Notes: generated by a model from the letters alone, not told the origin. Shown: positions 2,698 through 35,059, numbered from the stretch's first letter. The stretch: 64,000 nucleotides of DNA from a virus (IMGVR_UViG_3300045988_159959), one strand, 5' to 3'. A program made the numbers and translations.

Positions 2698-2717
2698 TGT
2701 AACATTTTAGTGTTACA
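2698..2717. promoter_or_regulatory. Palindrome TGTAACA-N6-TGTTACA, site 1
   Basis: tgtaacattttagtgttaca lies in the divergent intergenic region between 2603 and 2819. Same 20-bp architecture as the sites at 7265, 7499, 16211, 17582, 26098 and 35040. Confidence 0.5.
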
Positions 2718-2818
2718 CTCTTGTTAATGGAAATAAAAACTCAAGCAATTATATATCAGTTTACAGAAATAATACAATTTAAATAGGAAATTTGGAATAT
2801 TCTATTTAAATTTGCACC

Positions 2819-4030
2819 ATGTATTTAGTAGAACAACATATTATTTCTGTAAATGATAAGAGATACAAAGATTTAGATCGAATTTGCTTCTTATCCAAAA
2901 ACTTGTATAATGCAGCTTTGTATGAGATTAAACAAGAGTTTCTTCGTACAGGTAAATGGATAAGATCAGGAGAACTTAATAAGAAAATGGTAGCAGAAAA
3001 CAATATAGATCATAGAGCTATGAGTGGATCATCCTCTCAACAAGTTCTTATGTCTTTGGATAAAAATTTAAAGTCTTATTTTTCTGCTATTAAAGCATGG
3101 AAAAGAGATAACAAGAAATTTACCGGTTGTCCTAAGTTTCCAAAATACAAACACAAGACTAAAGGTAGGAATGTGTTCTCTTACTCTTATGCACAGTTTA
3201 AACACAGAGGTAATTATATTTTCTTTCCTAAGAAAGAAGGTCTGTCGCCTTTGAAAACAAATTGTAAAGAAGGTTCTGTCAAACAAGTTCGATTTGTTCC
3301 TAAATCAGATTGTTATATCATAGAGGTTGTGTATGAATCAAAAATAAAAGAACAACTTCCTGATAATAATAGAGTTATGTCTATTGATTTGGGTGTAAAT
3401 AATCTTGCTTCTATTGTTACTAATGTAAGTAAGAAAGCTATTTTGATTGATGGAAGAAAATTAAAATCCATTAATCAGTATTACAATAAAAAGAAATCAA
3501 AAATTCAACAACAACTAAAAAAGACAAACGGAAAAGAAAATTCGAGACGATTAATTTATCTAACAAGAAAAAGAAACAATAAAGTAAAAGATTATCTTCA
3601 TAAAGCAAGCAAAGAAATTATCAATATTTGCTTGGAAGATAATATATCAACATTGATAGTAGGACATAATGATGGATGGAAGCAAAGCACCAATCTTGGT
3701 AAAAGAAACAATCAGAATTTTGTAAGCATTCCGTTTGAAACGTTTATATCAATGTTAAAGTATAAATCAGAAAGACAAGGACTAAGATTTGTTGAAGTAA
3801 ACGAATCTCATACGTCAAAATGCAGTTCTTTTGATTTAGAATCTGTGGAACACCATGATACTTACGTTGGTAAAAGAATTAAGAGAGGACTTTTCAGAAC
3901 CAAAGATGGAATCTTACTTAATGCAGATATCAACGGAAGTTATAACATCATGAGAAAAGTAAAAGGGGATGCAGTAATGCCACCCTATACAGGGTTTGGG
4001 TATAACCCAGTTAAGAAATTTATTAACTAA
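2819..4030 (+). CDS. tnpB: TnpB-like RNA-guided endonuclease; subgroup without canonical RuvC-II Glu or zinc finger
   Basis: RuvC-I is SIDLGVNNLA and RuvC-III is LNADINGSYNI. The segment LIVGHNDGWKQSTNLGKRNNQNFVSIP...VNESHTSKCSS replaces the usual xxEDL...TSQxCxxCG. Confidence 0.8.
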   Translation: MYLVEQHIISVNDKRYKDLDRICFLSKNLYNAALYEIKQEFLRTGKWIRSGELNKKMVAENNIDHRAMSGSSSQQVLMSLDKNLKSYFSAIKAWKRDNKKFTGCPKFPKYKHKTKGRNVFSYSYAQFKHRGNYIFFPKKEGLSPLKTNCKEGSVKQVRFVPKSDCYIIEVVYESKIKEQLPDNNRVMSIDLGVNNLASIVTNVSKKAILIDGRKLKSINQYYNKKKSKIQQQLKKTNGKENSRRLIYLTRKRNNKVKDYLHKASKEIINICLEDNISTLIVGHNDGWKQSTNLGKRNNQNFVSIPFETFISMLKYKSERQGLRFVEVNESHTSKCSSFDLESVEHHDTYVGKRIKRGLFRTKDGILLNADINGSYNIMRKVKGDAVMPPYTGFGYNPVKKFIN

Positions 4031-4062
4031 TGTGTATCGGTGTAAACTGACGTACAATTACC
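3900..4062 (+). ncRNA. candidate omega (right-end) RNA of TnpB copy 1
   Basis: Placed by analogy: TnpB guide RNAs overlap the 3' end of tnpB and the right end. A local hairpin GGGTT..AACCC and the conserved right-end motif are present. Boundaries are approximate. Confidence 0.35.
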
Positions 4063-4089
4063 AGAAGAACGGGAGAAAACATGAAAGAA

Positions 4090-5283
4090 TTAACTGTTTA
4101 AAGCAAGTGATTGGACTAACTTCAAGTAACATGACAAAGTTAGGAATTTGACGGGTGATTCCAACGAATTTTCGTCAAATTCATAGTCGTTCAACCATTT
4201 TTCTAACGCTTCTATGTCAATATATTGCCATTTTTCTTGTTTTAAACATTCTGCAAGTGCCGGGAAAGTGTATTCTTTATCCTTATTGAACTTTTTGCAT
4301 ACTCTTTTAAGGTAATTTTTTCTGCTGGCATACCAAACATCACCCGCAGAAGACATGCAATAATAGGAATTGTCTTTTCTTTTTACTCCAAATCGTGTTG
4401 TAATAGGATAATACACCCTATCAGCAAGGAAAATGAAAGGAATATACCAAACACTATACAAAAAGGTTGCAAATCTGTTCAATTTTGCTTCTGGAACAAA
4501 TTTTTTGAGGGTTTTTCTGAATCCATAAGCAAAATACCAGTTGTTCGCACCTCTTTTTACCTTTACAGTGTATTTTAAATGATCGTTCCTATCCTTTACT
4601 CTATCCCAGGGTTTCAATTTTTCTGTGTTCATGGACGGAAGATAAGTCCAAAAATGCTTCAATGCACTGAAATAGGGATTGTAAATGGTGTGTCCATGAT
4701 CGGAAACATAAGAAAGGATGTCATGTAGTATTTCTTTTACCAAATTTCCTATTTCCTGGTCTTTGAAAACGTCTATCAAAAGAGAAAGGGAGGGTAACAA
4801 GTTCCAAATTTGATCTTGCGATACGAAAGGAGAAAAGCAGGGGTCTTCGTTTTCAAGTTCGATCCCATTGGAATAACCACTTTCTACTTTTATAGCATCA
4901 AAAAGACCACAGGAAGCGGATGAAATATCGTCTCGAAGGAAAAACCCTTTTTCGTGTACAAAATACACTTTTGGATTTTTTGATTTTTCATCTTCATAGG
5001 CACTTACCGATAGCCTTTGAATGGATTTCAGACACCAAAGTATTTTGTCGTTACATGATTTATCTCCTAACAACGATTCTATCAAAAGGTAGTGAAGATA
5101 TTCGGCCATGTTGATAGTTCCGTCATACCAATATAGAGATTTCTTACCCAGTCTTGCGCTTTTTGTCACTTTACTGGCAGGAATATTCGTTCCTCTGCAA
5201 GTAGTTTCTTCTGTAGCGACAATAAAGTCTTTGAAGAAGATGTCTTTTAGCTTTGAGTATTTTTCTTCGATTGTCATAAGCAT
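4090..5283 (-). CDS. hypothetical protein (397 aa) sandwiched between the two TnpB elements
   Basis: Long ATG ORF on the opposite strand to both tnpB genes. No motif recognised. Confidence 0.7.
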   Translation of the reverse strand: MLMTIEEKYSKLKDIFFKDFIVATEETTCRGTNIPASKVTKSARLGKKSLYWYDGTINMAEYLHYLLIESLLGDKSCNDKILWCLKSIQRLSVSAYEDEKSKNPKVYFVHEKGFFLRDDISSASCGLFDAIKVESGYSNGIELENEDPCFSPFVSQDQIWNLLPSLSLLIDVFKDQEIGNLVKEILHDILSYVSDHGHTIYNPYFSALKHFWTYLPSMNTEKLKPWDRVKDRNDHLKYTVKVKRGANNWYFAYGFRKTLKKFVPEAKLNRFATFLYSVWYIPFIFLADRVYYPITTRFGVKRKDNSYYCMSSAGDVWYASRKNYLKRVCKKFNKDKEYTFPALAECLKQEKWQYIDIEALEKWLNDYEFDENSLESPVKFLTLSCYLKLVQSLALNS

Positions 5284-5362
5284 ATATATTAATGTATAAA
5301 ACTATGTTTTAAAGCATAAAGTAAATAGAGTCTATTTTACTTTAATTTTGTATGTTTGCACT

Positions 5363-6565
5363 ATGATTAAATCGTTCAAATATAGATTAAATCCTACCAA
5401 AAGTCAAATCGTTCAAATGGAAAAGACTTTTGGATGTTGTCGTTATATCTATAATTGGGCACTTGATAGGAAAATAAAAGCATATCAAGAAAGTAAAAAG
5501 TCTCTATCTGCTATTGACTTATGTAAAGAACTTACTTTATTAAAACAAAAAGAAGATCATCTTTGGCTTAAAGAAGTTTCAAACGAATCTTTACAGCAAT
5601 CTATAAGATGTTTAGATTCTGCTTTTACGAAATTTTTTAGAGAACATACTGGCTTTCCAAAGTTCAAATCCAAGCATCATGATAAATCAACTTTCAAAAA
5701 TATCGGTTCTGTCAAGATTGATTTTGAAAACAGTAAAATCAAAATTCCGATTTTAGGCTGGGTAAAGTTTTATAAAAACCGTTCTTTTGAAGGGAAAATA
5801 GGAACAATAACGGTTTCAAAATCTTCTACTGGTAAATATTATGTAAGTGTATTGGTAAAAGATGGAAATTCTTTACCCGAAAAGAATCCTATTACACCTT
5901 CTACTTCTGTCGGGATAGATGTTGGTTTAAAAGATTTTGCTGTTTTATCAAATGGACAAGTTTTTCAAAATCCAAAATATCTTGAAAAATTTTCTAAAAG
6001 ATTAGCTTGTTTGCAAAGAAGACTTTCAAGAAAAAAGAAGGGGAGCAATAGATACAAAAAGGCAAAATTGGCTGTTACTATCTGCCATGAAAGAATAAGA
6101 AACCGTAGACAGGATTTTCTGCATAAAGTTTCTAAAAGAATAATCAGTGAGAACCAAACTGTTATTATTGAAGATTTGAATGTAGAAGGTATGTTGAAAA
6201 ATCATTGTCTTGCAAAGGGTATTTCTTCCGTTTCTTGGAATGAATTTTTTAGAATGTTGCAATACAAAGCAGAATGGAATGGAGTAAATCTTATTAGAAT
6301 AGGAAGATTTGAGCCTTCTTCAAAGATGTGCTCTTGTGGGTATATCAATAAAGATTTAAAACTTTCAGATAGAAGGTGGATATGTCCTTGTTGTGGTTCT
6401 GAAAATGATAGAGATTTACTTGCAGCGCAAAACATTAAAAGATTTGGCTTAGAAAAACAGAATCTTTTAAGCCAAGAAAATATTTCACCGGTGGTAAACC
6501 GGGCAGAGGACGCGGAGTTGCCGACATTGGTCGGAACAGTGAAACGTCAAATTATATCGGTGTAG
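5363..6565 (+). CDS. tnpB: TnpB RNA-guided endonuclease (canonical RuvC plus zinc finger)
   Basis: N-terminus MIKSFKYRLNPTKSQ; RuvC motifs GIDVGLKDFA, VIIEDLNVEGM and DRDLLAAQNI; zinc finger CSCG...CPCCG. The track start at 5348 is a TTG; the ATG at 5363 is preferred. Confidence 0.9.
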   Translation: MIKSFKYRLNPTKSQIVQMEKTFGCCRYIYNWALDRKIKAYQESKKSLSAIDLCKELTLLKQKEDHLWLKEVSNESLQQSIRCLDSAFTKFFREHTGFPKFKSKHHDKSTFKNIGSVKIDFENSKIKIPILGWVKFYKNRSFEGKIGTITVSKSSTGKYYVSVLVKDGNSLPEKNPITPSTSVGIDVGLKDFAVLSNGQVFQNPKYLEKFSKRLACLQRRLSRKKKGSNRYKKAKLAVTICHERIRNRRQDFLHKVSKRIISENQTVIIEDLNVEGMLKNHCLAKGISSVSWNEFFRMLQYKAEWNGVNLIRIGRFEPSSKMCSCGYINKDLKLSDRRWICPCCGSENDRDLLAAQNIKRFGLEKQNLLSQENISPVVNRAEDAELPTLVGTVKRQIISV

Positions 6566-6581
6566 CTGATATATGATTACC
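6440..6581 (+). ncRNA. candidate omega RNA of TnpB copy 2
   Basis: A GC-rich segment with hairpin CCGAC-attg-GTCGG sits in the 3' end of tnpB and runs into the conserved right-end motif. Boundaries are approximate. Confidence 0.4.
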
Positions 6582-6971: not shown

Positions 6972-7211
6972 TTACACCCCAACTTTTGCTCGGTAAGCCT
7001 GACGAAGATTTTCTACTACGATTTCCAAAGCATTTACATTCATGCTTTCGACAATCCTTACACCCGGCACAACCGTTCTCCAAATAGCATTTCCGTTATC
7101 ATCAATAGTTTGTTCTATTGTTGCATCCGGATAAATCTTTTGCAGTTTTACTTTAGCTGCTTCCAGTCTTTCTTGATAAGTTGCCATAGCTATATTCTTT
7201 TTTGCTTTCAA
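6972..7211 (-). CDS. hypothetical protein (79 aa)
   Basis: ATG ORF downstream of a minus-strand -7 box at 7374-7381. Confidence 0.5.
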   Translation of the reverse strand: MKAKKNIAMATYQERLEAAKVKLQKIYPDATIEQTIDDNGNAIWRTVVPGVRIVESMNVNALEIVVENLRQAYRAKVGV

Positions 7212-7264
7212 AAGTAAGCCCTCTCCTATTCAAAAACAAATACTTTAACAAATGTTAATAATGT

Positions 7265-7294
7265 TGTAACATTATACTGTTACATATATCTTTG
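7265..7294 (+). promoter_or_regulatory. Palindrome site 2 plus -7 box TATCTTTG
   Basis: tgtaacattatactgttaca (7265-7284) is followed by TATCTTTG (7287-7294). Confidence 0.5.
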
Positions 7295-7373
7295 CACCGA
7301 CATGAGAAAAGATGGAAAGAAGAAAGCAGATTAATTAAGTCGGTAATGGTGTACCTTGCAATAGATGGATTTG

Positions 7374-7381
7374 CAAAGATA
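7374..7381 (-). promoter_or_regulatory. -7 box TATCTTTG on the minus strand
   Basis: Inverted copy of the 7287-7294 box, oriented toward 6972..7211. Confidence 0.4.
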
Positions 7382-7478
7382 TGTACCCTCGACAATGAGA
7401 TAATCATTGTTCCTATCACAGTCATTCTTGTTAGTGTTATTTTGACACTAAAGGTTTTTGACTGAATTTCGACAAAAA

Positions 7479-7522
7479 TGTAACATTATATTTTGTCATG
7501 TAACATTAAAGTGTTACATTTG
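7479..7522 (+). promoter_or_regulatory. Tandem operator/promoter upstream of the HTH gene
   Basis: A degenerate palindrome tgtaacattatattttgtca (7479-7498) is immediately followed by the perfect tgtaacattaaagtgttaca (7499-7518). The latter runs into TTTG, giving TACATTTG (7515-7522), 33 nt before the ATG at 7555. Confidence 0.6.
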
Positions 7523-7554: not shown

Positions 7555-7755
7555 ATGCAAAAAAATGGATTAAAAATTAAAGAGATCATGCAAGAAAAAG
7601 GTATTTCCGTAGCCCAGGTGTCAGAAAAATTGGGAGTAACAAGGCAATCTCTTTATAGGTGTCTGAACGGAAATCCTACCATGAACCGGTTAAAGGAAAT
7701 AGCTGATATTCTTGATGTTTCTCCAAAAGACTTATTTGAAGATGAAAATAATTGA
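7555..7755 (+). CDS. XRE-family helix-turn-helix transcriptional regulator
   Basis: 66 aa. IKEIMQEKGISVAQVSEKLGVTRQSLYRCLNG is a typical HTH_3 motif. Confidence 0.85.
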   Translation: MQKNGLKIKEIMQEKGISVAQVSEKLGVTRQSLYRCLNGNPTMNRLKEIADILDVSPKDLFEDENN

Positions 7756-8855: not shown

Positions 8856-8881
8856 ACTAATCATCTCAAAAACAACAAAAT

Positions 8882-9556: not shown

Positions 9557-9901
9557 ATGGACAAATTATATTTTAAAACACGAAAAGAAGAAATTCAATC
9601 TAAGATTGATAGTTGTAAGAAAGAAATGAAAGAATTAGAGAATGAATACATAGTCTCTAATCAAAAATTCCCTATTGGGAGTAAAGTTTGTTTGACTATT
9701 CCCGCTTATGAACTCCGAGGTCTCGGTATTAATAGAATAAGAATAGTTCCAGAAGAAAAGAAATTTGCTTATGTAACTGGATATGAAATTGTGGCAAATG
9801 AAGTTGTTCCTATTCTTATGAAAGCAAAGAAGGATGGAACAATATCTAAATTGAGAGAATACACATCATTTAAACAGGTAACAATTGAATTAGCAGAGTA
9901 G
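9557..9901 (+). CDS. hypothetical protein (114 aa)
   Basis: ATG ORF with a 2-nt gap to the next ORF. Confidence 0.55.
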   Translation: MDKLYFKTRKEEIQSKIDSCKKEMKELENEYIVSNQKFPIGSKVCLTIPAYELRGLGINRIRIVPEEKKFAYVTGYEIVANEVVPILMKAKKDGTISKLREYTSFKQVTIELAE

Positions 9902-9903
9902 GT

Positions 9904-10239
9904 ATGAAAAGAGAAGATATAGCAAAAGCATCTTCTGTCTTTAAAAAGACAGTGAAAAGGGAAATAGGGAACTTTCATAATGATATAAGCCTAAACAGTG
10001 TTGCAGTTGCCTTTAGAGAGGGTGTTAATTGGTTTATAGATTTTGTATGGCACGATAAAACAGTAAAGCCTAAAGTCAGTGAACTTATTGTCTGTATCCA
10101 TGAGAAAGGGAAACTATTGGGTATTCTTCAAGAGGATCAAGTTTTTATATCGTCCCGTCCGGGATGTATTCTGTATGATTTCAATGAAACGATAAAATGG
10201 GCATACTTGAACGACTTGTTAGGTATTATGGAGGATTGA
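9904..10239 (+). CDS. hypothetical protein (111 aa)
   Basis: ATG ORF, tightly packed. Confidence 0.55.
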   Translation: MKREDIAKASSVFKKTVKREIGNFHNDISLNSVAVAFREGVNWFIDFVWHDKTVKPKVSELIVCIHEKGKLLGILQEDQVFISSRPGCILYDFNETIKWAYLNDLLGIMED

Positions 10240-12591: not shown

Positions 12592-13392
12592 ATGGGTGAA
12601 TTAAAGATTTTCAAAAATGAAGAATTTGGAGAAGTAAGAACAATGTTAGTAAATGGCGAACCTTACTTTGTGGGAAAAGATGTTGCATCTGTTTTGGGTT
12701 ATTCTAACACCAGAAACGCAATTTTACAACATGTTGATAGTGAGGACGCCTTAAAACAGGGCGTCCCTGATAATCAAGGTTTTACACAACAAACAACTTT
12801 GATAAACGAAAGTGGGCTTTACTCTTTAATTTTCGGCAGTAAATTAGAATCTGCAAAGAGTTTTAAAAGATGGGTAACTTCTGAAGTGTTGCCCGCTATT
12901 AGGAAAACCGGAAGCTACAATTTACCATCCTATCAAATAGAGAATCCTATTCAGCGTGCTGAAGCATGGATTCAAGAAGAAAAAGAAAGACAGGCTCTAA
13001 AAGAACAAGCTAAACAGCTTGCCGAAGAAAACAAAATTCTGGAGAACCAGATAGAAGAGGATGTACCTAAAGTAATTTTCGCAATGGCCGTAACCGAATC
13101 CAAGCGTTCTTGTCTTGTTGCGGAGCTTGCAAAGATCATCTGTCAAAACGGAATGGAGGTAGGGCAGAACCGGATGTTTAAATGGCTCCGCAAACGCGGA
13201 TATCTTGGAACAAAAGGAGAATACTACAATCAGCCTATGCAAAGATGGGTAGAAGCAGGAATGTTCGAAATCAAGAAAAGAACGATTACAAAACCGAACG
13301 GTGATCTGATTACAGTAAGTACACCTCTTGTAACCGGCAAAGGGCAAGTGTATCTCGTGAACAAGTTCCTGAAAGAATATGTCTCAAAATGA
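12592..13392 (+). CDS. Bro-N domain / KilA-C-type phage antirepressor-like protein
   Basis: FKNEEFGEVRTMLVNGEPYFVGKDVASVLGY...SGLYSLIF.SKLESAKSFKRWVTSEVLPAIRKTG is a Bro-N signature. The C-terminal half resembles KilA-C. The ATG at 12592 is preferred to the TTG track start at 12523. Confidence 0.8.
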   Translation: MGELKIFKNEEFGEVRTMLVNGEPYFVGKDVASVLGYSNTRNAILQHVDSEDALKQGVPDNQGFTQQTTLINESGLYSLIFGSKLESAKSFKRWVTSEVLPAIRKTGSYNLPSYQIENPIQRAEAWIQEEKERQALKEQAKQLAEENKILENQIEEDVPKVIFAMAVTESKRSCLVAELAKIICQNGMEVGQNRMFKWLRKRGYLGTKGEYYNQPMQRWVEAGMFEIKKRTITKPNGDLITVSTPLVTGKGQVYLVNKFLKEYVSK

Positions 13393-13567
13393 AAATGAAA
13401 AATCATCCAATTTGTCGCAATATAATGTTACATTTTAGTCTGAAAATACTGTTTGACATATTATATTGTGACAAATTCACAAAAAGTTTGTTACTTATAA
13501 ACACTTCTGCCCACTATTTCACCTAAATGTTAAAATCAAAAATCTATATTTTAGACCTTAAAACCAT

Positions 13568-13760
13568 CCTATTTTCAATCAAAAATATACAATAAGTAAA
13601 TTCATTTTCGCCTATAGGGGAAGTCGGAAATTCAAAATTTATAAATCATTGATATTTAATTGTTTAACTTAAAAACTTACAAAAACAGAACTTTTCCACC
13701 TTATTGTAAAAATATACAATAAGCTCTGTAGTCATTTTCTTGTCTCATTTTACCTCAAAT
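13568..13760 (+). repeat. about 190-bp non-coding repeat unit, copy A
   Basis: Contains CCTATTTTCA, TATACAATAAG twice (13586, 13713), ATTTTCGCCTATAG, and the hairpin CTTATTGTA-aaaata-TACAATAAG (13700-13723). Homologous to 15290-15475. Confidence 0.6.
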
Positions 13761-14078
13761 GTTAAAACTAATCTGAAAAAGTAAAAGTAAAGTGTTACAT
13801 TTTGATGTGAAAACAGTTAAGGAAGGTAAAATAGGAGAAATTGTACTTTCAGAGGCTAAAAATTCATTCATTTAGGCGTAATTTGTAACAATCCAGTTGT
13901 GTCCATAGTAGGAGATTTACTCTATTTTGTAAGAATAAACCGTTACATTTTAGTCTGTTTTTGGACTTTTTGTTAGTATCATTTTAATAGGAACAATCTT
14001 TATTTACTTTACAAATAGTCAAAATTCAAAAACAATCGAAAAATAGGGTATGTGAGACCCATCAAAAATCACATAAGT

Positions 14079-14135
14079 CTGAAAATCAATAATTTAAATT
14101 TTTCAATTTTCGTCCACTCCCTTATAGCGAAAAAA
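14079..14135 (-). repeat. partial inverted copy (C) of the same repeat core
   Basis: The reverse complement TTTTTCGCTATAAGGGAGTGGACGAAAATTGAAAAATTTAAATTATTGATTTTCAG aligns at an eye estimate of about 75-80 percent to ATTTTCGCCTATAGTGCGTACTCGAAAATTTGATTCATTTAAAATATTGATTTTCAG in copy B. Confidence 0.5.
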
Positions 14136-14244
14136 GTTTTGAAAACCCGATTTTATTATTATCATTTTGATAGGGAGATTAATTTATTCCATATCATTTT
14201 GTCAAAATAGGGAGATTTTATGTATTGAGCGAAGCGATTATCCC

Positions 14245-14283
14245 TCGGAAGGGATGAAGAATCCGCAAGGATTCCCCTTCCGA
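14245..14283 (+). other. long coaxial hairpin capped by a GCAA (GNRA) tetraloop
   Basis: TCGGAAGGG-atgaa-GAATCC-GCAA-GGATTC-CCCTTCCGA: 9-bp plus 6-bp stems. GC-rich within AT-rich, ORF-free DNA. Confidence 0.5.
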
Positions 14284-15130
14284 AAGAAAATAGGATAGAC
14301 CAACCCACCAAAAATCGCCAATAGAAGTCCAAATCCATATTCTCGTACATACCAACAAAGAAAAACAGGAAAGTCAAACCCATAGGAAAGAAAAGAAATG
14401 TCCTACCCCTTTCTCAATAAAAAAACCAGCTAAAAAGAAAAAAGGAAGGAAGCCTCATATAAAAGAGATTTTCAAAATTTCTATATATGAGAGTAGTGTA
14501 ATTGAAGACAGTATCTATTGTATAGGAAAATAAATACCCTCTCTACCAAACTTCTTTTTGATAATATTTGTACAATATGTTGGTTTTCAAGAAGATAAAT
14601 ATAAACATATCTACAAAAATTTCGCCAGTAGGACACTATTTAGAGGCTTTGTCTTGTGGCATGAAAGAAATAAATGATCATTTGTAAAAACCGCTAATAA
14701 GAGTGTGTTTGAGAATTTTCTATACATAAGATATTGAAAACCAAGAGATTGAAAATATTTCTTTCTGTAAGAAATCCCTATATGGAGAGCAAAATAAAAC
14801 TTTTTCTTGTGACGTATTGGGCACGCCATCTCAATATGGAGAGTCCTCAAACAGTCCCTAAAGATACCCTACCAAAACAAAATACCCCGGATAACCTACT
14901 TTTCCGCTTATTTCTGACACTTTCTTTCCAAAATGATATACCACTACCGCACAGATAAAAACAAAGCTTTAAAAACGATTATTTGAAATCATAGGATCAG
15001 AGCATAGGAACCGGGAAAGGACAGCAACCACTATTCCTATTACATGGAGAAAAGAAAACGATCAGCGAACAGGAACAGAAATATGCGCGGGAAATAGAAG
15101 CGTTATACCGGACAGATCTCTACAAAGAAA

Positions 15131-15166
15131 TTTCTTATATATATAATATATTATATATATAAGAAA
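15131..15166. repeat. 36-bp perfect AT-rich palindrome
   Basis: TTTCTTATATATATAATA|TATTATATATATAAGAAA has 18-bp arms with no spacer or mismatch. Confidence 0.8.
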
Positions 15167-15289
15167 AATGAACAAATGAAGGGAATAACAAGGCAATGAA
15201 GAACAACGACACACGAAGGGTTGCACCCTATCAATGTGATAATAGAAGGGTATTTGTGTCAAATTTGAAAGTTTTTGAACTGAATTTTG

Positions 15290-15475
15290 CCTATTTTCAT
15301 TGTAAAAAATACAATAAGTCAAACTATTTTCGCCTATAGTGCGTACTCGAAAATTTGATTCATTTAAAATATTGATTTTCAGTTAATTAGCTAAATCTGA
15401 TTCGAAAACTCGATTTTTTAGAGTGATCAAAAAATTATACAATAAGTCATTTTGATAATTTTAGTGTCAAAAATG
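15290..15475 (+). repeat. about 190-bp non-coding repeat unit, copy B
   Basis: Same block order as copy A: CCTATTTTCA, (A)TACAATAAG at 15310 and 15436, ATTTTCGCCTATAG at 15326. Confidence 0.6.
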
Positions 15476-15533
15476 AAAGATTTTGAGGTTTTACAGGTGA
15501 AAATAGGTGCATTCCGGTATTAGTATAGCTCTC

Positions 15534-15580
15534 AAAATTGGGTCGTATATGGTGCGTTACAGCGCCGTAGACCCAATTTT
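15534..15580. other. 11-bp-stem hairpin
   Basis: AAAATTGGGTC ..25 nt.. GACCCAATTTT, perfect arms. Confidence 0.55.
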
Positions 15581-16090
15581 AAAAACAATAGATATATTAT
15601 CCCGGGAAGAAAGAAAGTAATATATAGAAGGCTAAAATAGCTGTAGAAGATGATCAACAGCTACAGGGAATAGAAGTGAAAAGTAGGAAGCAAACAAAAC
15701 TACAAACACTCAGAAAAGTGCATAAATAAAGGGGAGGTGAAGAATAAAGAGGGTAAAAGGGAAATGGTTTTGGCGTGTGGTAGTGGCAGGTGCGGCGAGA
15801 TAATCACATACACTATCATTATAAAACGCTTTTTATTCTTATTATCACGTCCAGGCATTACAAAAACAGTCAAATCACACACAATTCAAAAACTCTTTTT
15901 CTACTTACATACATATAACATTCTACTTCTTCCCTATTATGTTATATAGCTATCGTTTCCTATTCTTTTTTCTTTTATTTTGATAGGTATTTGTGTAATT
16001 TATTGATATTCAAATAATTGTGTATCATGCTATTTAGATTCATTCTAAATAAGGTTTTATTTATTGGTACGGGTTATTCCTATTTGTTTT

Positions 16091-16141
16091 AAATTAAAGG
16101 TTCCGCACGCGCTAAGTGCGCTTTCGCTCCGCCTTTAATTT
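16091..16141. other. nested GC-rich hairpin directly upstream of the 93-bp repeat
   Basis: Outer arms AAATTAAAGG / CCTTTAATTT. Inner hairpin CGCAC-gcgctaa-GTGCG. Confidence 0.55.
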
Positions 16142-16143
16142 GA

Positions 16144-16236
16144 TATAAGTAACAAACAAAACAAAGAAAAACAATCAAATTAACCTTTCTTAACTATAAA
16201 ACCTTTGGTATGTAACATTAAAGTGTTACATTTGTA
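16144..16236 (+). repeat. 93-bp perfect direct repeat, copy 1 (promoter module)
   Basis: Identical to 17515-17607 when read by eye. Begins TATAAGTAACAAAC and ends TGTAACATTAAAGTGTTACATTTGTA. Confidence 0.85.
16211..16234 (+). promoter_or_regulatory. Palindrome plus -7 box (TGTAACAttaaagTGTTACATTTG)
   Basis: Perfect 20-bp palindrome. Its 3' half forms TACATTTG (16227-16234), 46 nt before the ATG at 16280. Confidence 0.6.
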
Positions 16237-16279
16237 ATGTGATAAAGAAATAGTAATAACAACATAAACAATAAAGATC

Positions 16280-17086
16280 ATGAAAGCAACGAGAATCAAC
16301 GCAAACCAGGCACAGGAATTAATCAATAACGTAAAGTCTGTTATTCGTTTAGGCGGTTTTGAAACTGGATTAAGAACTAATCTAAATAAGGCAATTTCCT
16401 ATTGCAAAGGCGCATATTCAATGACTTATTCAAGTCCTGAATATTTATTTAAAAAAGAATATCAAATAGAGACAAAAGTACGTTTTACCAACTTTTTGGG
16501 CGAAAGTTATGAAATTTGGTTTGAAGAATCTAAAATCTATACTTTCGAGAACGAAGGCGAAAAATTTCTAATCGTTACCGGTTTGGGCTATTGTAACGTT
16601 TATCAGTTAATCCAAAAAGACGAAAACGAAAGTTTCGACGATCAGCCGGCAATAACTGATAACGGAGATAGTAAAGAAACTTCTATTTCCTACGAAGGCA
16701 AAACGATTAACATTAATTGCTTGCTATCAAATACGAAGGCTTGCGAATGGGATAAAAAATACCCGGAAAGTCACAATCACTATATAGTAACAGTGAGTTA
16801 TGAAGGCAAAAGATTATCTTTTAATTGGTTTGATAGCTTTTATAATTTTCGTTATGGTATCGTTGATAAAAACAGAAAAGAGATGATAGAAATGTTTTAT
16901 TCGTTTTTACAGGATATTATTTACAAAACGAATATTCGGATAAAAAACGACTTTTGTAAAGAAGAGGGAAATGTACCTACTTTATGGAGTGCATTATGCA
17001 AGCATGAAAATAAATATAATAGAGTTTTTGATAACGTAGATATTTACGAACTTGTAAATTATTTGCAAGAAACATTTGAATTATAA
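16280..17086 (+). CDS. hypothetical protein (268 aa)
   Basis: ATG ORF directly downstream of the promoter module. Confidence 0.65.
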   Translation: MKATRINANQAQELINNVKSVIRLGGFETGLRTNLNKAISYCKGAYSMTYSSPEYLFKKEYQIETKVRFTNFLGESYEIWFEESKIYTFENEGEKFLIVTGLGYCNVYQLIQKDENESFDDQPAITDNGDSKETSISYEGKTININCLLSNTKACEWDKKYPESHNHYIVTVSYEGKRLSFNWFDSFYNFRYGIVDKNRKEMIEMFYSFLQDIIYKTNIRIKNDFCKEEGNVPTLWSALCKHENKYNRVFDNVDIYELVNYLQETFEL

Positions 17087-17347: not shown

Positions 17348-17554
17348 ATGAAACTGAAAGTAATACAAACAATATTAGAAGGCTTGAAATTAGTATTTAT
17401 TTCCTTCGTTATCTCTTTGATTTTCTTGTATGTAGATAATAGCAACGTTTTACACGTTATCCTATCCATTCCAATGGTGATTATTTTGTTTTATATTCTG
17501 GTTGAAAAATCATTTATAAGTAACAAACAAAACAAAGAAAAACAATCAAATTAA
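17348..17554 (+). CDS. small membrane protein (68 aa)
   Basis: Two hydrophobic segments. The last 13 codons lie inside copy 2 of the 93-bp repeat. Confidence 0.5.
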   Translation: MKLKVIQTILEGLKLVFISFVISLIFLYVDNSNVLHVILSIPMVIILFYILVEKSFISNKQNKEKQSN

Positions 17555-17607
17555 CCTTTCTTAACTATAAAACCTTTGGTATGTAACATTAAAGTGTTAC
17601 ATTTGTA
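17515..17607 (+). repeat. 93-bp perfect direct repeat, copy 2
   Basis: Identical to 16144-16236. Confidence 0.85.
17582..17605 (+). promoter_or_regulatory. Palindrome plus -7 box
   Basis: TGTAACAttaaagTGTTACATTTG, upstream of the ATG at 17685. Confidence 0.6.
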
Positions 17608-17684: not shown

Positions 17685-18650
17685 ATGGCAACTACAGTAA
17701 ATAACAGTAATGAAAGTAAAGTAGTAGTAAATAGTATTGGCTTTTCTGGATCATTTTCTAAGTTCTTCAAAGAGAACACACAAATAGATGATACCTTTTT
17801 TGAAGGCGGTAAAAATTATTTGTTCACCTATTCTATAAAATTAGATGATAATTGTAAAAACGGACATTTAACCTTTAGTTTTACGGGGGAAATCAAAGTT
17901 AAAAAAGGAAATGGAAGGCTTTACGATTATATAAGTGGCGCAATTGCTGATATAATTGTTTATTTTAAGCCGGAACTTGAAAAATTTAACCAGTTGCATA
18001 CTTGCAACCATTTAGGACAATTAATGTATATTGATGATATTAGATACTTCATTAATGAAGGTAAAACTAACAAGCAAATAGCGGAAATGTATAATATTTC
18101 GAATTTGGAAGCTATTGAAACGTTGCGAAATGCTTCCGACAATAAAGAACTATTCTATTACCTTGTTTTCCGCTTGGGTATCGCTGAAACCTGGGAAAAG
18201 CAAGCGAAAGAAGCTATTCGAGAAATGGAAGCAAAAACGGGCTTAACTTTGAAAATTGAAAATAAGGATAAAGTTTACAAGCAATTTGACGCAGAAAAGT
18301 GTAACGACATGGCCTATTTGTTTAAACATGGTTACGCGACAAAAGAAATGAAACAAGCGCGTGAAGAAACTGCAAGAACAAAGAAACGGTTAGAAGAACT
18401 TGCAGAGATTGAAAAAGAGTTTGCCAAAAGTGTAGAAAAAGCAAAAAGAATTTACGAAGTAAAAAAGGCGGTTGTCTCTTTCGGCATAAGTTGGGATAAC
18501 GTTACCCTTTACGATCATAGAAACGAGCTTTGTTTTAATTGGTTAGATTGCTGCAAAAAGGTTCCTTCTGATTTAATCAACGAACTTGTGTGCAGTAACA
18601 CCCTACCAGAAGGAATAGAGGTAACGAACCTGGACAAAGGTAGGGAATAA
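17685..18650 (+). CDS. hypothetical protein (321 aa)
   Basis: The ATG at 17685 (MATTVNNS) is preferred to the TTG track start at 17664. Confidence 0.65.
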   Translation: MATTVNNSNESKVVVNSIGFSGSFSKFFKENTQIDDTFFEGGKNYLFTYSIKLDDNCKNGHLTFSFTGEIKVKKGNGRLYDYISGAIADIIVYFKPELEKFNQLHTCNHLGQLMYIDDIRYFINEGKTNKQIAEMYNISNLEAIETLRNASDNKELFYYLVFRLGIAETWEKQAKEAIREMEAKTGLTLKIENKDKVYKQFDAEKCNDMAYLFKHGYATKEMKQAREETARTKKRLEELAEIEKEFAKSVEKAKRIYEVKKAVVSFGISWDNVTLYDHRNELCFNWLDCCKKVPSDLINELVCSNTLPEGIEVTNLDKGRE

Positions 18651-18731: not shown

Positions 18732-20771
18732 ATGAAAGCAACTAATAATAACACAGATACTTTATTTATGGAAATTTTTGTTGAATTATTGACAATTGCT
18801 AAAGCATATTTTCAGGAACTTTTTAAAAACGAAAAACCGGGCGTATATACATTAAAGGACATTTATAACTATATAGCAAATTGTGATAGTCTTGAAACAA
18901 AACTAGGGAAAGCGGAAAGATTAACAGAGAGAGAAAAAGAACAAGCGATAAAATACTATACAAAAAGTCCTTACTATTCAAATATTAATCCTACTTTAAT
19001 AAACAGTATGCTATACTTGTGCAAAGTTTCAAATAACATTGTTTTTATTGAAAAAGGCAGTTTCAAATGTAGTTTTGATGTGATCAAAGTATTTGAATAT
19101 CTGGAAAGATTCAAACAGTTGTCGGGTGCAAAAGAAAAATTAGAATTTGTCAAAGAAGAAACTGGAAATAATGAACAAAACGAAAATAATTGTCTTTGCG
19201 CTTTTGACATCGCATTTGACAAGAAAGATAAAACGTTTCTAACTGCAAAAACCAAAAATTCAGCTTATTATTTTTGTAACAATGTTTTGATAGATATAAA
19301 TTTAAGCAAAATATATGCTACTGATTCGTTTATTTGCAAAAGTAGAAATGTGAGAATATCTAATCTTTCCGGTAGTTGGGATAAGCATGTATGTATATCT
19401 TTTAACGTTTTCAAAAAGGTAGTAGGGAAAAGTTGTAGAATTATGGTTGATCGCGACAACAAAGAAGATCAAGTAATTGTAACGATCAAAACAGCTAACG
19501 GTGAAATTTTCGAATGTCGCTACTATGATTTTGACAAGAACGTAAATATAGAGGGCGTTCGTCCTATTTTATACAAGGAATTAAAATTGACGGTTAAGGA
19601 CGGCAAACAGCTTGTAAAGGACTTAAAAACTATATCTAAAGTCTTTGAATTTGTTTCTTTCGAGGCAGAAAAGGGATCAGACCGGCTAAAAGTAAATTAT
19701 ATTACAGAGTTTGGCGCAAGCAACAAAAAAAATAAATACGGAGAGTTTTATGTACAATTGTCTGAACCTTCTAATTTTACATATAGAACGGATAACAAGA
19801 TAGATAGGATCATTTCTTGTTTAAATGATTGGAACGGCGAAATATACATTACAAAAGAAAGCTATTGTAACAAACTTTCTTTTGTCTCTGATAGTTGTGA
19901 TAATTGTTTTATGGTTGCCGGCAGTAAAATGAATTGTTTCGATCAGATCAGAAATAAAGCAGACTATTTCCCGAACCAATTAACGCCTGTTTATTGCGAA
20001 AAAGAAACAAAAGAGCCGGACACAAATATTAAGCCTGTAGGAATTTTGGAAAATCAAAACGACACAAACCTACAGGAAAGCAAAGAAAGTGCCTTAAATG
20101 CGATAGGAATAAGTGAAAATGAGTGGGGAAAGATAGAGTTATCTCTAAAAGATATTTACAATATAGTGTACGAAGACGGAATGATATCTTTTGTCACTAA
20201 AAATAGTAGCAACCTTGTAAGCAAAATTTATATCTGGACTTATACAAAACGTTTGGGGATATATTCAAAAGTAGGCGTTAGTTTGGAAAAGGATATAGAT
20301 ACAAGCATTCCTTTTGTTGAATTTTTAGAGCGGTCTTTGATGGATTTAAAGAGACACGCCACAAATAAAGTATTTTTCTTCATGGAGAAAGAGGGTTATC
20401 GTTGGAAACAACCGAACGCGCAAACATTCCACCTATTCAAGAACGGGAAAGAAAAGACGTTTGAAAATGAGTTTGAAGCATATAACTTTGTTCGAGACAA
20501 AGAGAATAAAAAATACTTTGACTTTAATGTCTCTGACTATACGGACGATATGATAGAAGTAACCGGACTTGACCCGGAAAGCATTACGTCTAAAGTAAAA
20601 CAGGATAGCCCAAAAGAGTTAAAAGTTATACAGGATATAAAGCTATATGATAAAACCGGAAAGATAGTGTTTATTTATGATAATGGAAGTGTAAGCACTG
20701 TAATAGAAACAACTTTCAACGGTGATAGTGTGCTGCAAAGTGTATTACAAAAGATAAACGAAAACATGTAA
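18732..20771 (+). CDS. 679-aa protein with a central DnaN (beta sliding clamp)-like two-domain region
   Basis: AYYFCNNVLIDINLSKIYATDSFICKS aligns by eye with clamp RYYLNGMLFE....VATDGHRLAV. Downstream patterns (..RYYDFDKNVNIEGVRP.., ..CFMVAGSKMN) parallel LVDGRFPDYRRVLP and YVVMPMRL. The N- and C-terminal extensions are unrecognised. Confidence 0.45.
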   Translation: MKATNNNTDTLFMEIFVELLTIAKAYFQELFKNEKPGVYTLKDIYNYIANCDSLETKLGKAERLTEREKEQAIKYYTKSPYYSNINPTLINSMLYLCKVSNNIVFIEKGSFKCSFDVIKVFEYLERFKQLSGAKEKLEFVKEETGNNEQNENNCLCAFDIAFDKKDKTFLTAKTKNSAYYFCNNVLIDINLSKIYATDSFICKSRNVRISNLSGSWDKHVCISFNVFKKVVGKSCRIMVDRDNKEDQVIVTIKTANGEIFECRYYDFDKNVNIEGVRPILYKELKLTVKDGKQLVKDLKTISKVFEFVSFEAEKGSDRLKVNYITEFGASNKKNKYGEFYVQLSEPSNFTYRTDNKIDRIISCLNDWNGEIYITKESYCNKLSFVSDSCDNCFMVAGSKMNCFDQIRNKADYFPNQLTPVYCEKETKEPDTNIKPVGILENQNDTNLQESKESALNAIGISENEWGKIELSLKDIYNIVYEDGMISFVTKNSSNLVSKIYIWTYTKRLGIYSKVGVSLEKDIDTSIPFVEFLERSLMDLKRHATNKVFFFMEKEGYRWKQPNAQTFHLFKNGKEKTFENEFEAYNFVRDKENKKYFDFNVSDYTDDMIEVTGLDPESITSKVKQDSPKELKVIQDIKLYDKTGKIVFIYDNGSVSTVIETTFNGDSVLQSVLQKINENM

Positions 20772-23344: not shown

Positions 23345-23610
23345 TACTATTAGTTTTTAAAGACGAAAGGGCTAAGAACCGATTTTTACAGATTGTGTTC
23401 AAAGCCCTTTCTTGATTAACGTAATTAATTAACAACGAGATTGTTAATGTGCCTACTCTGTTAAGGATTTTCGGCATCCTCCTTTATTAAAAACTTTAGA
23501 TTTATATAGAGGAATATAGAATAGATTTTATTATTTCATGATCTCACCTCCTTTCTTTAATAGGGTTTGCAACTCGATTGACTATGTGAATAATTATACA
23601 GGAAAATCAG

Positions 23611-26093: not shown

Positions 26094-26117
26094 CAAATGT
26101 AACATTATACTGTTACA
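26094..26117 (-). promoter_or_regulatory. Palindrome plus -7 box on the minus strand
   Basis: The minus strand reads TGTAACAgtataaTGTTACATTTG, 21 nt before the ATG at 26072. A diverged copy of the 93-bp module extends to 26198. Confidence 0.6.
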
Positions 26118-30924: not shown

Positions 30925-31010
30925 TCGTTTTTATTTCAAATTAAACTACTCGAATTGATCGTCTTCATTAGGATCGCAATCTTCATCTTCGAAGTCGTTA
31001 ATCCAATCTT

Positions 31011-32939: not shown

Positions 32940-32943
32940 GTTT

Positions 32944-33498: not shown

Positions 33499-33502
33499 AA
33501 TC

Positions 33503-33985: not shown

Positions 33986-34191
33986 ATACTTTCTTTTATG
34001 ATCGCTGACTTTAAAAATCCTGTTATTCCCATCCGAAAGGATTTCAATTTTCCGTTCCGAATAACATCCAGCTCAATGTTTCTAAAATCCCTTGCCACCC
34101 TCACACCTTTGATTGTAGCTTCTCCTATTCCGGGAAGTTCTATCGTCTTATCTCTTAATCTGTTTAGGATACAGTTATTCTTCGAGTTCAT
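33982..34191 (-). CDS. hypothetical protein (69 aa)
   Basis: ATG ORF with overlapping stop/start on both sides. Confidence 0.5.
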   Translation of the reverse strand: MNSKNNCILNRLRDKTIELPGIGEATIKGVRVARDFRNIELDVIRNGKLKSFRMGITGFLKSAIIKESI

Positions 34192-34495
34192 GCGGTTTTA
34201 GAACGCTTTTGTAAATCACGAAGTTATCATGCCCGAAACCGATAGAGACAGAATCGCATTCCTTTATCCACCCCCTTATTGTCCCTTCCGAATAATTAGA
34301 AAGATTGGCTTTCAAAACAATGCTTGTAACGTCTTGTCCAATTGCTTCATTTTGATAGAAGTCCCTTGTCTTTCCGTTGAAATTATCCAAAAGGATAGTT
34401 CTTTCCATCTTTCCGTCTGCCGACATAATAGCAAGAACAGGCTTCTTTCCTATTCGTTGCATGTGGCTAATAGCCATATAAAGAATATGTTCCAT
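34175..34495 (-). CDS. hypothetical protein (106 aa)
   Basis: ATG ORF in the array. Confidence 0.55.
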   Translation of the reverse strand: MEHILYMAISHMQRIGKKPVLAIMSADGKMERTILLDNFNGKTRDFYQNEAIGQDVTSIVLKANLSNYSEGTIRGWIKECDSVSIGFGHDNFVIYKSVLKPHELEE

Positions 34496-34501
34496 GATTA
34501 A

Positions 34502-34831
34502 TTACTTATAATTCAACATGTTCTTAATCGCTTTTTCTTGATAGAAGCGTTTCTTGTCTTCGCCTCCATCTTTCTTAGAAAAGTTGTTCGCCCTTTTCTT
34601 CAATATCTTTGCCTTGCTTTCGGTAGACATCATCTTAAATTCTCCTATAGAAATGTCGGGAACCTTTTCGTTCTTTTCTTCTTCATAAGAGACTTGCTTA
34701 CCGCATACCGGACATTTGGGAAGATTGGAAGGAACAAGTTTATTGTAACGAAAGACGAACTTTGCATTTGTCATGGGAGACTTTATCCCAAACCTTTCGC
34801 AATTTTCATTGCCACAATATATTCTTATCAT
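34502..34831 (-). CDS. zinc-ribbon protein (109 aa)
   Basis: CGNENC ... CPVCG cysteine pairs and a basic C-terminus. Confidence 0.55.
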   Translation of the reverse strand: MIRIYCGNENCERFGIKSPMTNAKFVFRYNKLVPSNLPKCPVCGKQVSYEEEKNEKVPDISIGEFKMMSTESKAKILKKRANNFSKKDGGEDKKRFYQEKAIKNMLNYK

Positions 34832-35000
34832 TCTGAATCTGTTTGATTTTATCCTTCAAAAGAAAAAGTTGCTTTTCCGCTTCTTCCAATCTTGAAGGGT
34901 CGTTTACATTGTTTTTGAGGTAGGAAAGATCGTGTTCAATACTTTCCAGTCTGTCCAAGAAAGACAAGACAAAAATGTTCAAATACTTATTACTCGCCAT
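34806..35000 (-). CDS. hypothetical coiled-coil protein (64 aa)
   Basis: First ORF after the promoter palindrome at 35040-35059. Confidence 0.5.
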   Translation of the reverse strand: MASNKYLNIFVLSFLDRLESIEHDLSYLKNNVNDPSRLEEAEKQLFLLKDKIKQIQNDKNILWQ

Positions 35001-35035
35001 AGTCTAAATTATTTGTTTGTTACTTATAACGGACG

Positions 35036-35059
35036 CAAATGTAACAATATACTGTTACA
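35036..35059 (-). promoter_or_regulatory. Palindrome plus -7 box on the minus strand
   Basis: The minus strand reads TGTAACAgtatatTGTTACATTTG, followed by TTATAAGTAACAAAC and then the ATG at 35000. Confidence 0.6.

Follow-up and report, generated by a model that had tools for sequence, protein, structure and literature searches.

Stand-alone XRE proteins of about 66–80 aa with five helices, among them CylR2 of Enterococcus faecalis and the C proteins C.AhdI and C.BclI, are among the closest described parallels to the regulator considered here, which is a protein of the same kind. They act as homodimers on ~20-bp palindromes lying within promoters, the arrangement we propose for this locus, and C proteins autoregulate by way of a pair of neighbouring operators in front of their gene. 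SinR of Bacillus subtilis, a further relative, binds inverted 7-bp repeats. The primary-sigma promoter of Bacteroides, reportedly described by Bayley et al. in 2000, consists of a -33 TTTG and a -7 TAnnTTTG. A Cro-like repressor seated over core promoter elements is a textbook mechanism, and a probable case of it is here defined for the first time in a family of gut phages.

We analysed a window of 64,000 nucleotides from an uncultured human-gut phage of ~100 kb (IMGVR_UViG_3300045988_159959; positions count from the first letter of the window) for a 20-bp palindrome, TGTAACA-N6-TGTTACA, that a sequence-only reading had placed at operon starts on both strands. Exactly seven perfect copies occur in the window, starting at 2698, 7265, 7499, 16211, 17582, 26098 and 35040, and all coincide with those listed in that reading. 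Its degenerate copies at 7479 and 13413 were likewise recovered and two more, at 13780 and 13928, were added, giving four degenerate copies and 11 copies overall. Perfect palindromes were absent from 100 dinucleotide-preserving shuffles of the window, and matches with up to two mismatches numbered 11 against 0.33 expected. Three of the four extra matches are the degenerate copies at 13413, 13780 and 13928; the 7479 copy has three mismatches, every one in its right half. Isolated half-sites were about as frequent as base composition predicts (~16 versus ~14 expected), so only the paired arrangement is enriched, and the spacer between the halves is conserved in part (nTAwAn). The copies are intergenic, as had been claimed: all 11 lie outside codon-usage gene calls, which occupy 87% of the window, and the chance that the seven perfect copies would all fall in the 13% non-coding fraction is ~6e-7. 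A similar density inside coding regions, which would have spoken against an operator, was not seen, as no coding copy carries both half-sites. The fourth extra match, at 19275, was set aside as a likely chance match; it sits inside a 679-aa gene, has the left half-site only and is not followed by TTT. The sites and the two genes discussed with them are as follows.

2698–2717, minus strand: perfect palindrome, followed by TTTT on the minus strand (TACATTTT)
7265–7284, plus strand: perfect palindrome, unfused, with a separate TATCTTTG box at 7287–7294
7302–7465, plus strand: small gene of 54 aa; positively charged N-terminus and one hydrophobic helix
7479–7498, plus strand: O2, copy degenerate in one half, TGTAACATTATATTTTGTCA, immediately next to O1 (centres 20 bp apart)
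7499–7518, plus strand: O1, perfect palindrome TGTAACATTAAAGTGTTACA in the predicted XRE gene promoter, with the -7 box TACATTTG at 7515–7522
7555–7755, plus strand: gene that leads the rightward small-gene operon and encodes a 66-aa HTH protein of XRE/Cro type, our candidate repressor
13413–13432, plus strand: degenerate copy TGTCGCAATATAATGTTACA with TTTT after it, where an ORF-free 2.9-kb region begins
13780–13799, plus strand: degenerate copy; right half and TTTT intact, left half decayed
13928–13947, plus strand: degenerate copy TGTAAGAATAAACCGTTACA, followed by TTTT
16211–16230, plus strand: perfect palindrome; -7 box at 16227–16234, -33 TTTG at 16204–16207
17582–17601, plus strand: perfect palindrome; -7 box at 17598–17605, -33 TTTG at 17575–17578
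26098–26117, minus strand: perfect palindrome; -7 box TACATTTG at 26094–26101, no -33 TTTG
35040–35059, minus strand: perfect palindrome; -7 box at 35036–35043

In five of the seven perfect copies (7499, 16211 and 17582 on the plus strand; 26098 and 35040 on the minus strand), the right half-site continues into TTTG and the two together form TACATTTG, a Bacteroidota -7 box (TAnnTTTG), with perfect boxes at 7515, 16227 and 17598 on the plus strand and at 26094 and 35036 on the minus strand. Half-site and box thereby have four bases in common, TGT[TACA]TTTG. Each of the five aims at the next gene on the same strand, the G of TTTG lying 32, 45, 79, 21 and 35 nt from the ATG, respectively, and the fusions and orientations proposed earlier are thus confirmed over distances of 21–79 nt. 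TTACATTTG occurs six times in the window: five are the fused palindromes, and the sixth is isolated inside a coding region and has no left half-site. A -33 TTTG stands exactly 19 nt upstream of the -7 TA in three promoters (7499, 16211 and 17582); the -33 position holds no TTTG at 26098 and TTGG at 35040, and G is found there in 50% of 26 non-redundant family contexts. The lack of a -33 box at 26098 and 35040 would also fit an activator. A variant ending, TACATTTT, is found at 2698 and 7479 on the minus strand and at 13413, 13780 and 13928.

The predicted 16211 promoter serves a 268-aa gene (16280–17086) and the genes after it, and the 17582 promoter 17685–18650, 18732–20771 and those beyond; the 26098 promoter serves a 47-aa gene (26072–25929) and small genes down to ~23611, and the 35040 promoter a 64-aa gene (35000–34806) and the block to 26191, which includes an NAD-dependent ligase and two helicases. 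A degenerate copy abuts the 35040 site upstream. Ahead of the XRE gene, the right half of O2 holds the -33 TTTG of the 7499 promoter (7492–7495), 19 nt upstream of the -7 TA, so that dyads of dimer size overlap the predicted -7 box at O1 and the predicted -33 box at O2. The 2698 copy is also oriented: it lies upstream of leftward genes (2603 to 920), with a separate TACTTTTG box at 2641–2648, and its homologous counterpart in relatives free of the IS insertions sits near -2460 relative to the XRE gene. The 7265 site lies between divergent promoters, one for a 71-aa gene (6972–7187, minus strand) and one for the 54-aa membrane-protein gene, which carries a frameshift in our window and is whole in 28 of 29 distinct relatives; as the ATG of the latter is 7 nt past the -7 box, its mRNA probably has little or no leader. 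At 13928, the left half is a G variant common among relatives. Elsewhere in the window, promoters carry a -7 box and no palindrome, so the latter labels only some of the promoters, which lie in the small-gene block and in part of the replication block, and the earlier proposal of an operator-like palindrome over host-type -7 boxes at operon starts on both strands is supported at the level of predicted promoter elements.

Relative to the fused class, the -7 box at 7265 is shifted 6 bp downstream. Both registers, fused and +6 bp, recur in both variant lineages, and the second register at 7265 indicates that the palindrome is an element separate from the -7 box. With the right half as the only seed for finding sites, the left half was 73–96% conserved per position in 26 non-redundant contexts, equal to the right half, and no host promoter element explains this, which argues for a symmetric binder. 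Half-site centres are ~13 bp apart when the whole 7-mer is read, a wider spacing than the usual 10–11 bp of HTH dimers, which speaks against this reading. The best explanation, which we rate a little better than even, is that the dyad is the operator of a dimeric phage-encoded factor acting over host Bacteroidota primary-sigma promoters.

The same sites might instead represent a strong host-type promoter cassette that has no dedicated repressor and spread by duplication and recombination within the genome and among mosaic relatives. The 16211 and 17582 sites do lie in identical 93-nt cassettes (16144–16236 and 17515–17607), conserved as whole units, beyond the dyad, at 90% or more in 57 sequences; because the cassette and not just the palindrome is conserved, some of the conservation reflects recent duplication. 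There are just three spacer families over 202 copies, and the double cassette precedes different operons in different relatives. The symmetry would then have arisen by accident or be left over from use in both directions, a half-site plus TTTG being able to become a -7 box, and at 7479/7499 both outward half-sites are indeed followed by TTT(T)G. Yet a TTT run is present on both sides in 1 of 202 copies (TTT on one side, TTTG on the other), contexts whose flanks are unrelated still share the left half, a divergent lineage keeps the dyad, including a fully symmetric form, TGTAAGAATATATTCTTACA, and the dyad also occurs displaced by 6 bp from the -7 box. We therefore consider spread of an unregulated cassette unlikely, and are similarly doubtful of incidental symmetry.

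If the dyad is an operator, the likeliest binder is the 66-aa XRE protein, a candidate nominated from sequence. It matches PHROG 8 (1.7e-17) and the Pfam families HTH_26 (8.6e-15) and HTH_3 (6.4e-12), both above gathering scores. Its AF2 model has five helices (pLDDT 84.5) and, in Foldseek, matches the SinR DNA-binding domain (DBD), CylR2, C.BclI and lambda repressor, making this a five-helix, 434/SinR/CylR2/C-protein-like domain. Pfam searches of 29 other proteins revealed no further DNA-binding domain, and PHROGs gave one more DNA-binding candidate, an Ant/Bro protein at 12592–13392; these two are the only recognisable regulators.

Conservation of the element extends to more than 57 related gut phage contigs of ~100 kb, with the family consensus TGTAAnA-nTAwAn-TnTTACA. 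In 57 XRE loci sampled without reference to the motif, the palindrome preceded the XRE gene in all 57 and the tandem O2–O1 pair in 55, although gene and operator are only ~50 bp apart, so that the constant association could be linkage alone. The same O2–O1 cassette precedes the ligase/helicase operon, at the position of the 35040 promoter, in other relatives. Across XRE clades 56–98% identical, the recognition-helix start TRQS-Y is invariant, as are half-site positions TGTAA-A. Among motif-selected loci, half-site position 6 (C versus G/T) looked linked to the helix-3 variant (LYRCL versus FYSIV), but the motif-independent sample contains both mismatched combinations, L291 and L296, and the apparent link is gone.

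A different binder has also been considered. The dyad could define a phage-specific promoter class, bound by a phage activator, sigma-like factor or polymerase-modifying protein that transcription needs. This reading accommodates the restriction of the motif to this phage family and the fused promoters at 26098 and 35040, where the -33 TTTG is missing, and MerR-type activators bind in the -33/-7 spacer, where the dyad sits. However, three promoters, with host -33 and -7 elements both complete and at consensus spacing, should need no activator; two copies over both elements at the regulator's own promoter are the usual layout of negative autoregulation; and a scan of ~60 window proteins turned up no gene for an RNA polymerase, a sigma factor or a MerR-type protein. 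The complete host elements, together with the lack of an RNA polymerase or sigma gene in the window, make the polymerase alternative raised in the sequence-only reading less likely. Overall we regard a phage-specific class as quite unlikely, and take much the same view of its variants, namely a MerR-like activator in the spacer, a middle-gene activator or a factor that re-targets host sigma. A second dyad/-7 fusion, TACAAAAGTTGTAnnTTTG, occurs at 48289 and 58132. If the phage-specific class were true, the 24-bp block would be a promoter class of a virulent Bacteroidota phage and, with TACAAAAGTTGTAnnTTTG, gene classes would be timed by different dimer sites, each in register with the host -7 box.

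A host transcription factor, such as a Bacteroidales CRP/FNR-type dimer through which the phage would sense host physiology, is very unlikely. CRP-type sites have a 5-6-5 architecture that the dyad resembles, but the exact 24-mer including TTTG gave just 23 scattered single matches in 596 Gb (185,579 species genomes), none of them in gut Bacteroides, which argues against a host regulon.

Least probable of all, to the point of being barely credible, is a role for DNA or RNA structure, with the sites serving as an N4-type hairpin or cruciform promoter, as a terminator, or as a signal for replication or packaging. Folded as single strands of DNA, they give -4.3 to -5.6 kcal/mol (z-scores -1.7 to -4.8), and degenerate copies cluster in the ORF-free 2.9-kb region. 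Against this, the stems are weak and A/T-rich, the dyad precedes the inferred start and hence is not part of the RNA of its own promoter, and 28 of 30 sites in the variant lineage have unlike half-sites at position 6 (TG or GT). With that stem pair broken, the pairing is not under selection, and the conserved hairpin pairing characteristic of N4-type promoters was not found. Nor was a virion, single-subunit or crAss-type RNA polymerase gene seen among the scanned window proteins, ~40 kb of the genome lying outside the window.

Returning to the operator reading, and placing the start a few bases past the -7 box, the site would span about -30 to -10, in the interval separating the -33 element from the -7 element, where a bound protein would keep RNA polymerase off and so repress. 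At the regulator's own promoter, O2 would cover the -33 box and O1 the -7 box, one operator per element. The XRE protein, as the first product of one such promoter, would silence about nine promoters besides its own, including those of several small-gene operons with no assigned function, the ligase/helicase operon and the sites of the ORF-free region. The outcome would be a co-regulated, self-limiting temporal class, here taken as early. The analysis directly shows the motif with its enrichment, placement, orientation, promoter context and family-wide conservation, and the fold of the XRE protein; where transcription starts, when it occurs, which protein binds and that it represses instead of activating are inferred.

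To our knowledge, almost nothing is known of the timing of gene expression in the abundant, uncultured phages of gut Bacteroidales. Our analysis offers a candidate regulon for a widespread ~100-kb family, comprising about ten promoters, a 24-bp operator–promoter consensus, a tandem autoregulatory operator and one 66-aa repressor candidate. If true, it would give a shared temporal class to dozens of genes without assigned function and provide, for Bacteroides engineering, a compact repressor–operator pair pre-matched to the Bacteroides -7 box.

Compared with known systems, the phage arrangement resembles lambdoid Cro/cI control (434 Cro, OR) in having a small HTH_3 protein beside tandem dyads over its own core promoter, more operators at a second early promoter and an A/T-rich dyad centre. 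The N-terminal domain of 434 repressor (2r63) matches the XRE protein in sequence (E = 3e-3), and the start of its recognition helix, TQQS, resembles the TRQS of the phage protein. The lambdoid dyad is 14–17 bp long, however, whereas that of the phage is 20 bp; the phage promoters are Bacteroidota -33/-7 promoters in which -7 box and half-site overlap by four bases; and about ten sites are scattered across 32 kb, where lambdoid phages have two operator regions. We saw neither a cI partner nor an integrase nor prophage copies, which makes a lysis–lysogeny switch improbable. CylR2 and the C proteins match in fold (TM-scores 0.70–0.77, query-normalised) at an identity of only 20–27%, and their systems involve one or two promoters where that of the phage extends across the genome; C proteins, moreover, both activate and repress according to operator occupancy. 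The DNA-binding domain of SinR is the closest solved structure in both sequence (E = 1e-6, ~36% identity) and fold, but SinR adds a C-terminal tetramerisation domain and has an antagonist, SinI, whereas the phage protein is the HTH domain alone. The phage promoters share with the Bacteroides primary-sigma promoter a perfect TAnnTTTG at five sites and a TTTG 19 nt upstream at three; in the phage, though, the nn is fixed as CA and 12 upstream bases are fixed by the dyad, a constraint that ordinary host promoters do not carry.

All seven perfect copies of the 20-bp palindrome TGTAACA-N6-TGTTACA reported by the sequence-only reading (2698, 7265, 7499, 16211, 17582, 26098 and 35040) are present in the window, compared with 0 in 100 shuffles, and allowing up to two mismatches adds four more matches, giving 11 against 0.33 expected. 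Lone half-sites are about as frequent as base composition predicts, and enrichment is restricted to the paired arrangement. The degenerate copies that had been proposed at 7479 and 13413 were also recovered; the former departs from the motif at three positions, none of them in the left half. A match at 19275 was discarded as chance: it lies within a 679-aa gene, has the left half-site alone and is not followed by TTT.

Degenerate copies with up to two mismatches:
13413, degenerate palindrome
13780, degenerate palindrome
13928, degenerate palindrome

All 11 copies, counting that at 7479 and leaving out the 19275 match, fall outside the genes called by codon usage, which cover 87% of the window, in line with the intergenic placement claimed; the motif does not occur at similar density inside coding regions.

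We next considered how the palindrome relates to the host promoter, whose -7 consensus in Bacteroides is TAnnTTTG. The sequence TTACATTTG occurs six times in the window, once as an isolated copy within a coding region and otherwise as the right ends of palindromes 7499, 16211 and 17582 (plus strand) and 26098 and 35040 (minus strand). The fusion to a -7 box asserted for these five palindromes holds, since their TACATTTG matches the consensus, as does their orientation, each box facing the next gene with 21–79 nt to the ATG. TTTT replaces TTTG after the copies at 2698 (minus), 7479 (minus), 13413, 13780 and 13928. Sigma-70-type hexamers showed no enrichment over shuffles in a promoter scan of the window, as expected for a Bacteroidota host. 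At 7499, 16211 and 17582, TTTG also stands exactly 19 nt 5' of the TA, the spacing of a -33 element. That the other two fused promoters lack a -33 box would suit an activator or a phage-specific polymerase reading the dyad, yet three of the promoters are complete host promoters and we saw no polymerase or sigma gene within the window, making such a reader less likely. Intergenic TAnnTTTG boxes also exist without the palindrome, which therefore marks a subset of promoters.

Intergenic TAnnTTTG boxes without a palindrome:
6860, minus strand
7209, minus strand
12387
21187
21342
48289, minus strand
49987, minus strand
58132, minus strand

To define the element, we seeded a conservation set on the right half plus TTT[GT] alone and reduced it to 26 contexts with unrelated flanks. 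Across these, the left half is kept at 73–96% per position and, within the spacer, the T, A and A at positions 2, 3 and 5 at 96–100%, yielding the oriented consensus (TTTG) N3 TGTAAnA nTAwAn TnTTACA TTTG. Because host promoter elements do not explain the conservation of the left half, a symmetric reader is indicated. At 7265, the -7 box (TATCTTTG, 7287–7294) lies 6 bp further 3' than in the fused class, and the homologous site in divergent relatives keeps this +6 register with another box, TACTTTTG; palindrome and -7 box can thus be separated. The gene behind this promoter (7302–7465), its ATG 7 nt past the box, encodes a small membrane protein of 54 aa whose N-terminus is charged and which has a single hydrophobic helix. 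Of 29 distinct relatives, 28 have an unbroken copy; in the window, a 1-nt deletion near 7320 shifts the frame, which reflects either faulty assembly or a gene that recently became a pseudogene.

Upstream of the gene for a 66-aa XRE-type helix–turn–helix protein (7555–7755, plus strand), the copy at 7479–7498 adjoins that at 7499–7518, with centres 20 bp apart; the degenerate right half of the former (TTTGTCA) holds the -33 TTTG and the matching -7 box is fused to the latter, so that there is one copy per promoter element. In 57 family loci picked by XRE protein homology with the motif ignored, a fused palindrome lies 44–57 nt 5' of the XRE gene in every case, and an abutting upstream copy is present in 55, the other two loci having a deletion and an IS element insertion, respectively. 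The double cassette also fronts an operon homologous to 35000–26191 in many relatives. The rival reading as a plain promoter cassette finds support in the few spacer families, in two 93-nt repeats of identical sequence (16144 and 17515) and in a cassette conserved along its whole length, but it is unlikely, as it leaves the symmetry, the second register and the tandem layout unaccounted for.

The sites likewise keep conserved distances from the XRE gene, at about -2460, -291, -56, +5.4 to +7.5 kb, +8.9 kb and +9.9 kb. The window's leftmost site is 4.9 kb from the XRE gene because of about 2.4 kb of extra DNA between them, including two TnpB genes; in relatives without this DNA, the 2698-type site is about 2.4 kb nearer.

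Genes separating the 2698 site from the leftward genes:
2819–4030, plus strand, TnpB-type transposase gene (PHROG 506)
4090–5283, minus strand, 397-aa ORF
5363–6565, plus strand, TnpB-type transposase gene (PHROG 506)

In two related loci (L116 and L270), a similar element interrupts the 54-aa gene or the upstream copy of the operator.

The XRE protein scores above threshold for Pfam HTH_26 and HTH_3 and falls in PHROG transcriptional regulator families, and AlphaFold models it with confidence (pLDDT 84.5) as a domain of five helices. A Pfam scan of 29 other proteins revealed no further DNA-binding domain; PHROGs added one candidate, an Ant/Bro-type protein (12592–13392). A large protein search for distant XRE homologues returned family members only, at 75% identity or above.

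Divergent relatives carry half-sites TGTAAGA or TGTAATA rather than TGTAACA, and their XRE recognition helix, helix 3, reads TRQSFYSIVNG rather than TRQSLYRCLNG. Among loci fetched by motif, linkage was perfect, LYRCL occurring with TGTAACA and FYSIV with TGTAAKA. In the mosaic loci L118/L119, moreover, a patch of about 300 bp (9800–10100) spans the tandem operator and the first ~35 XRE codons, the reading head; its central ~200 bp is 98–100% identical to the window, whereas the remaining backbone resembles the related locus L117. Promoter cassettes have clearly been exchanged between lineages. Linkage and patch together suggested an exchangeable specificity module of helix and operator, an idea overturned by the 57 motif-blind loci, which include both mismatched combinations: L291 has an LYRCL helix behind G/T-type operators, and L296 an FYSIV helix with C-type distal sites. 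Half-site position 6 is thus a tolerated position that recombination shuffles and is no specificity switch, and we rejected covariation as evidence for the XRE protein as binder. A weaker pointer is that the invariant helix residues TRQS-Y accompany the invariant half-site positions TGTAA-A in clades only 56–64% identical.

Operation of the dyad as a hairpin is also unlikely, and was rejected because it would rely on weak stems whose pairing has not been maintained, the variable position being mismatched between arms in 28 of 30 variant sites. So too is binding by a host factor: the exact 24-mer pattern gave 23 scattered single matches in 596 Gb of genome sequence from bacteria and archaea, a chance level, with 0 in gut Bacteroides, indicating that the motif belongs neither to a host regulon nor to prophages in reference genomes; both origins were rejected. 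In IMG/VR, by contrast, the pattern occurs in 115 stretches, on contigs that often hold several copies and are nearly all 55–108 kb long and from human gut metagenomes. The exact 24-mer pattern has matches in three contigs of one Terracidiphilus metagenome-assembled genome (L243, L250, L253) and in one contig each of three Pontibacter species (L234, L242, L251); these may be coincidental or stem from a repeated element of another kind. We found no mention in the literature of the motif in a Bacteroides phage context.

The minus strand of the window encodes a DnaB-like helicase, primase, split family-A polymerase, UvsX-like recombinase, SbcCD, NAD-dependent ligase, two further helicases, an intein-bearing terminase and a tail-fibre-like protein, and the plus strand a block of small genes without assigned function. 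The closest terminases, at 33% identity, are those of DAC16-group phages of Bacteroides thetaiotaomicron, and GenBank has a single close record, a human-faecal contig without annotation, leaving a crAss-like identity unsupported. The source is a widespread, uncultured Bacteroidales phage family of about 100 kb.

Several further features accompany these genes. The polymerase gene appears split by an IscB/HEARO mobile element, as both flanking ORFs match family-A DNA polymerase; the larger piece has an HNH-like insert at residues about 534–613. The terminase intein combines Pfam Hint (8e-22) with a LAGLIDADG homing endonuclease.

42207–45101, ORF matching family-A DNA polymerase
45171–46661 region, minus strand, IscB-like HNH protein (409 aa, PHROG 119)
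46452–46661, HEARO/omega RNA (Rfam RF02033, 97.9 bits)
46710–48263, ORF matching family-A DNA polymerase
52459–55248, minus strand, large terminase subunit with intein
23450–23484, minus strand, DUF805b RNA motif (Rfam RF02914, 53.6 bits versus a gathering score of 35.6), in the gap separating two convergent gene blocks

The sequence TTATAAGTAACAAAC has five copies (13486, 16143, 17514, 26182 and 35015) against 0.5 expected, all within about 100 nt of a palindrome: roughly 65–80 nt 5' of it at 16211, 17582 and 26098, and about 8 nt 3' of the -7 box at 35040, as well as in the relatives' double cassette. It includes one GTAACA half-site and retains the C even where the genome's operators are of the G/T type. 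A second dyad fused to a -7 box, TACAAAAGTTGTAnnTTTG (arms TACAA/TTGTA; two perfect copies only), lies upstream of replication and structural block genes (48289–48307 and 58132–58150, minus strand; 58069–58087, plus strand) and may be an operator or promoter of another temporal class. The interval 13393–16279, 2.9 kb without a credible ORF, is collinear in more than 30 relatives at 66–90% identity, even in the most divergent ones. Within it lie the three degenerate palindromes, a perfect A/T palindrome of 36 bp (15131–15166), stems rich in G+C and several internal repeats. It had 0 Rfam matches even at E = 1, and may serve as a replication origin or encode a long non-coding RNA.

The dyad is best explained by a Cro-like autoregulated repressor with operators over host-type promoters, for which the XRE protein is the candidate binder and repression is what we infer. 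Such a repressor would regulate itself negatively, and its operator would overlie the promoters of about ten operons. The repressor–operator design is itself classical; new are that it is now defined for a Bacteroidales phage family not characterised before, and that half-site and phylum-specific -7 box share four bases in register. The solved structures nearest to the XRE protein are the SinR DNA-binding domain, CylR2, the controller proteins C.BclI and C.AhdI, and the lambda and 434 repressor heads, several of which are stand-alone dimers of about 66–80 aa that bind ~20-bp palindromes within promoters.
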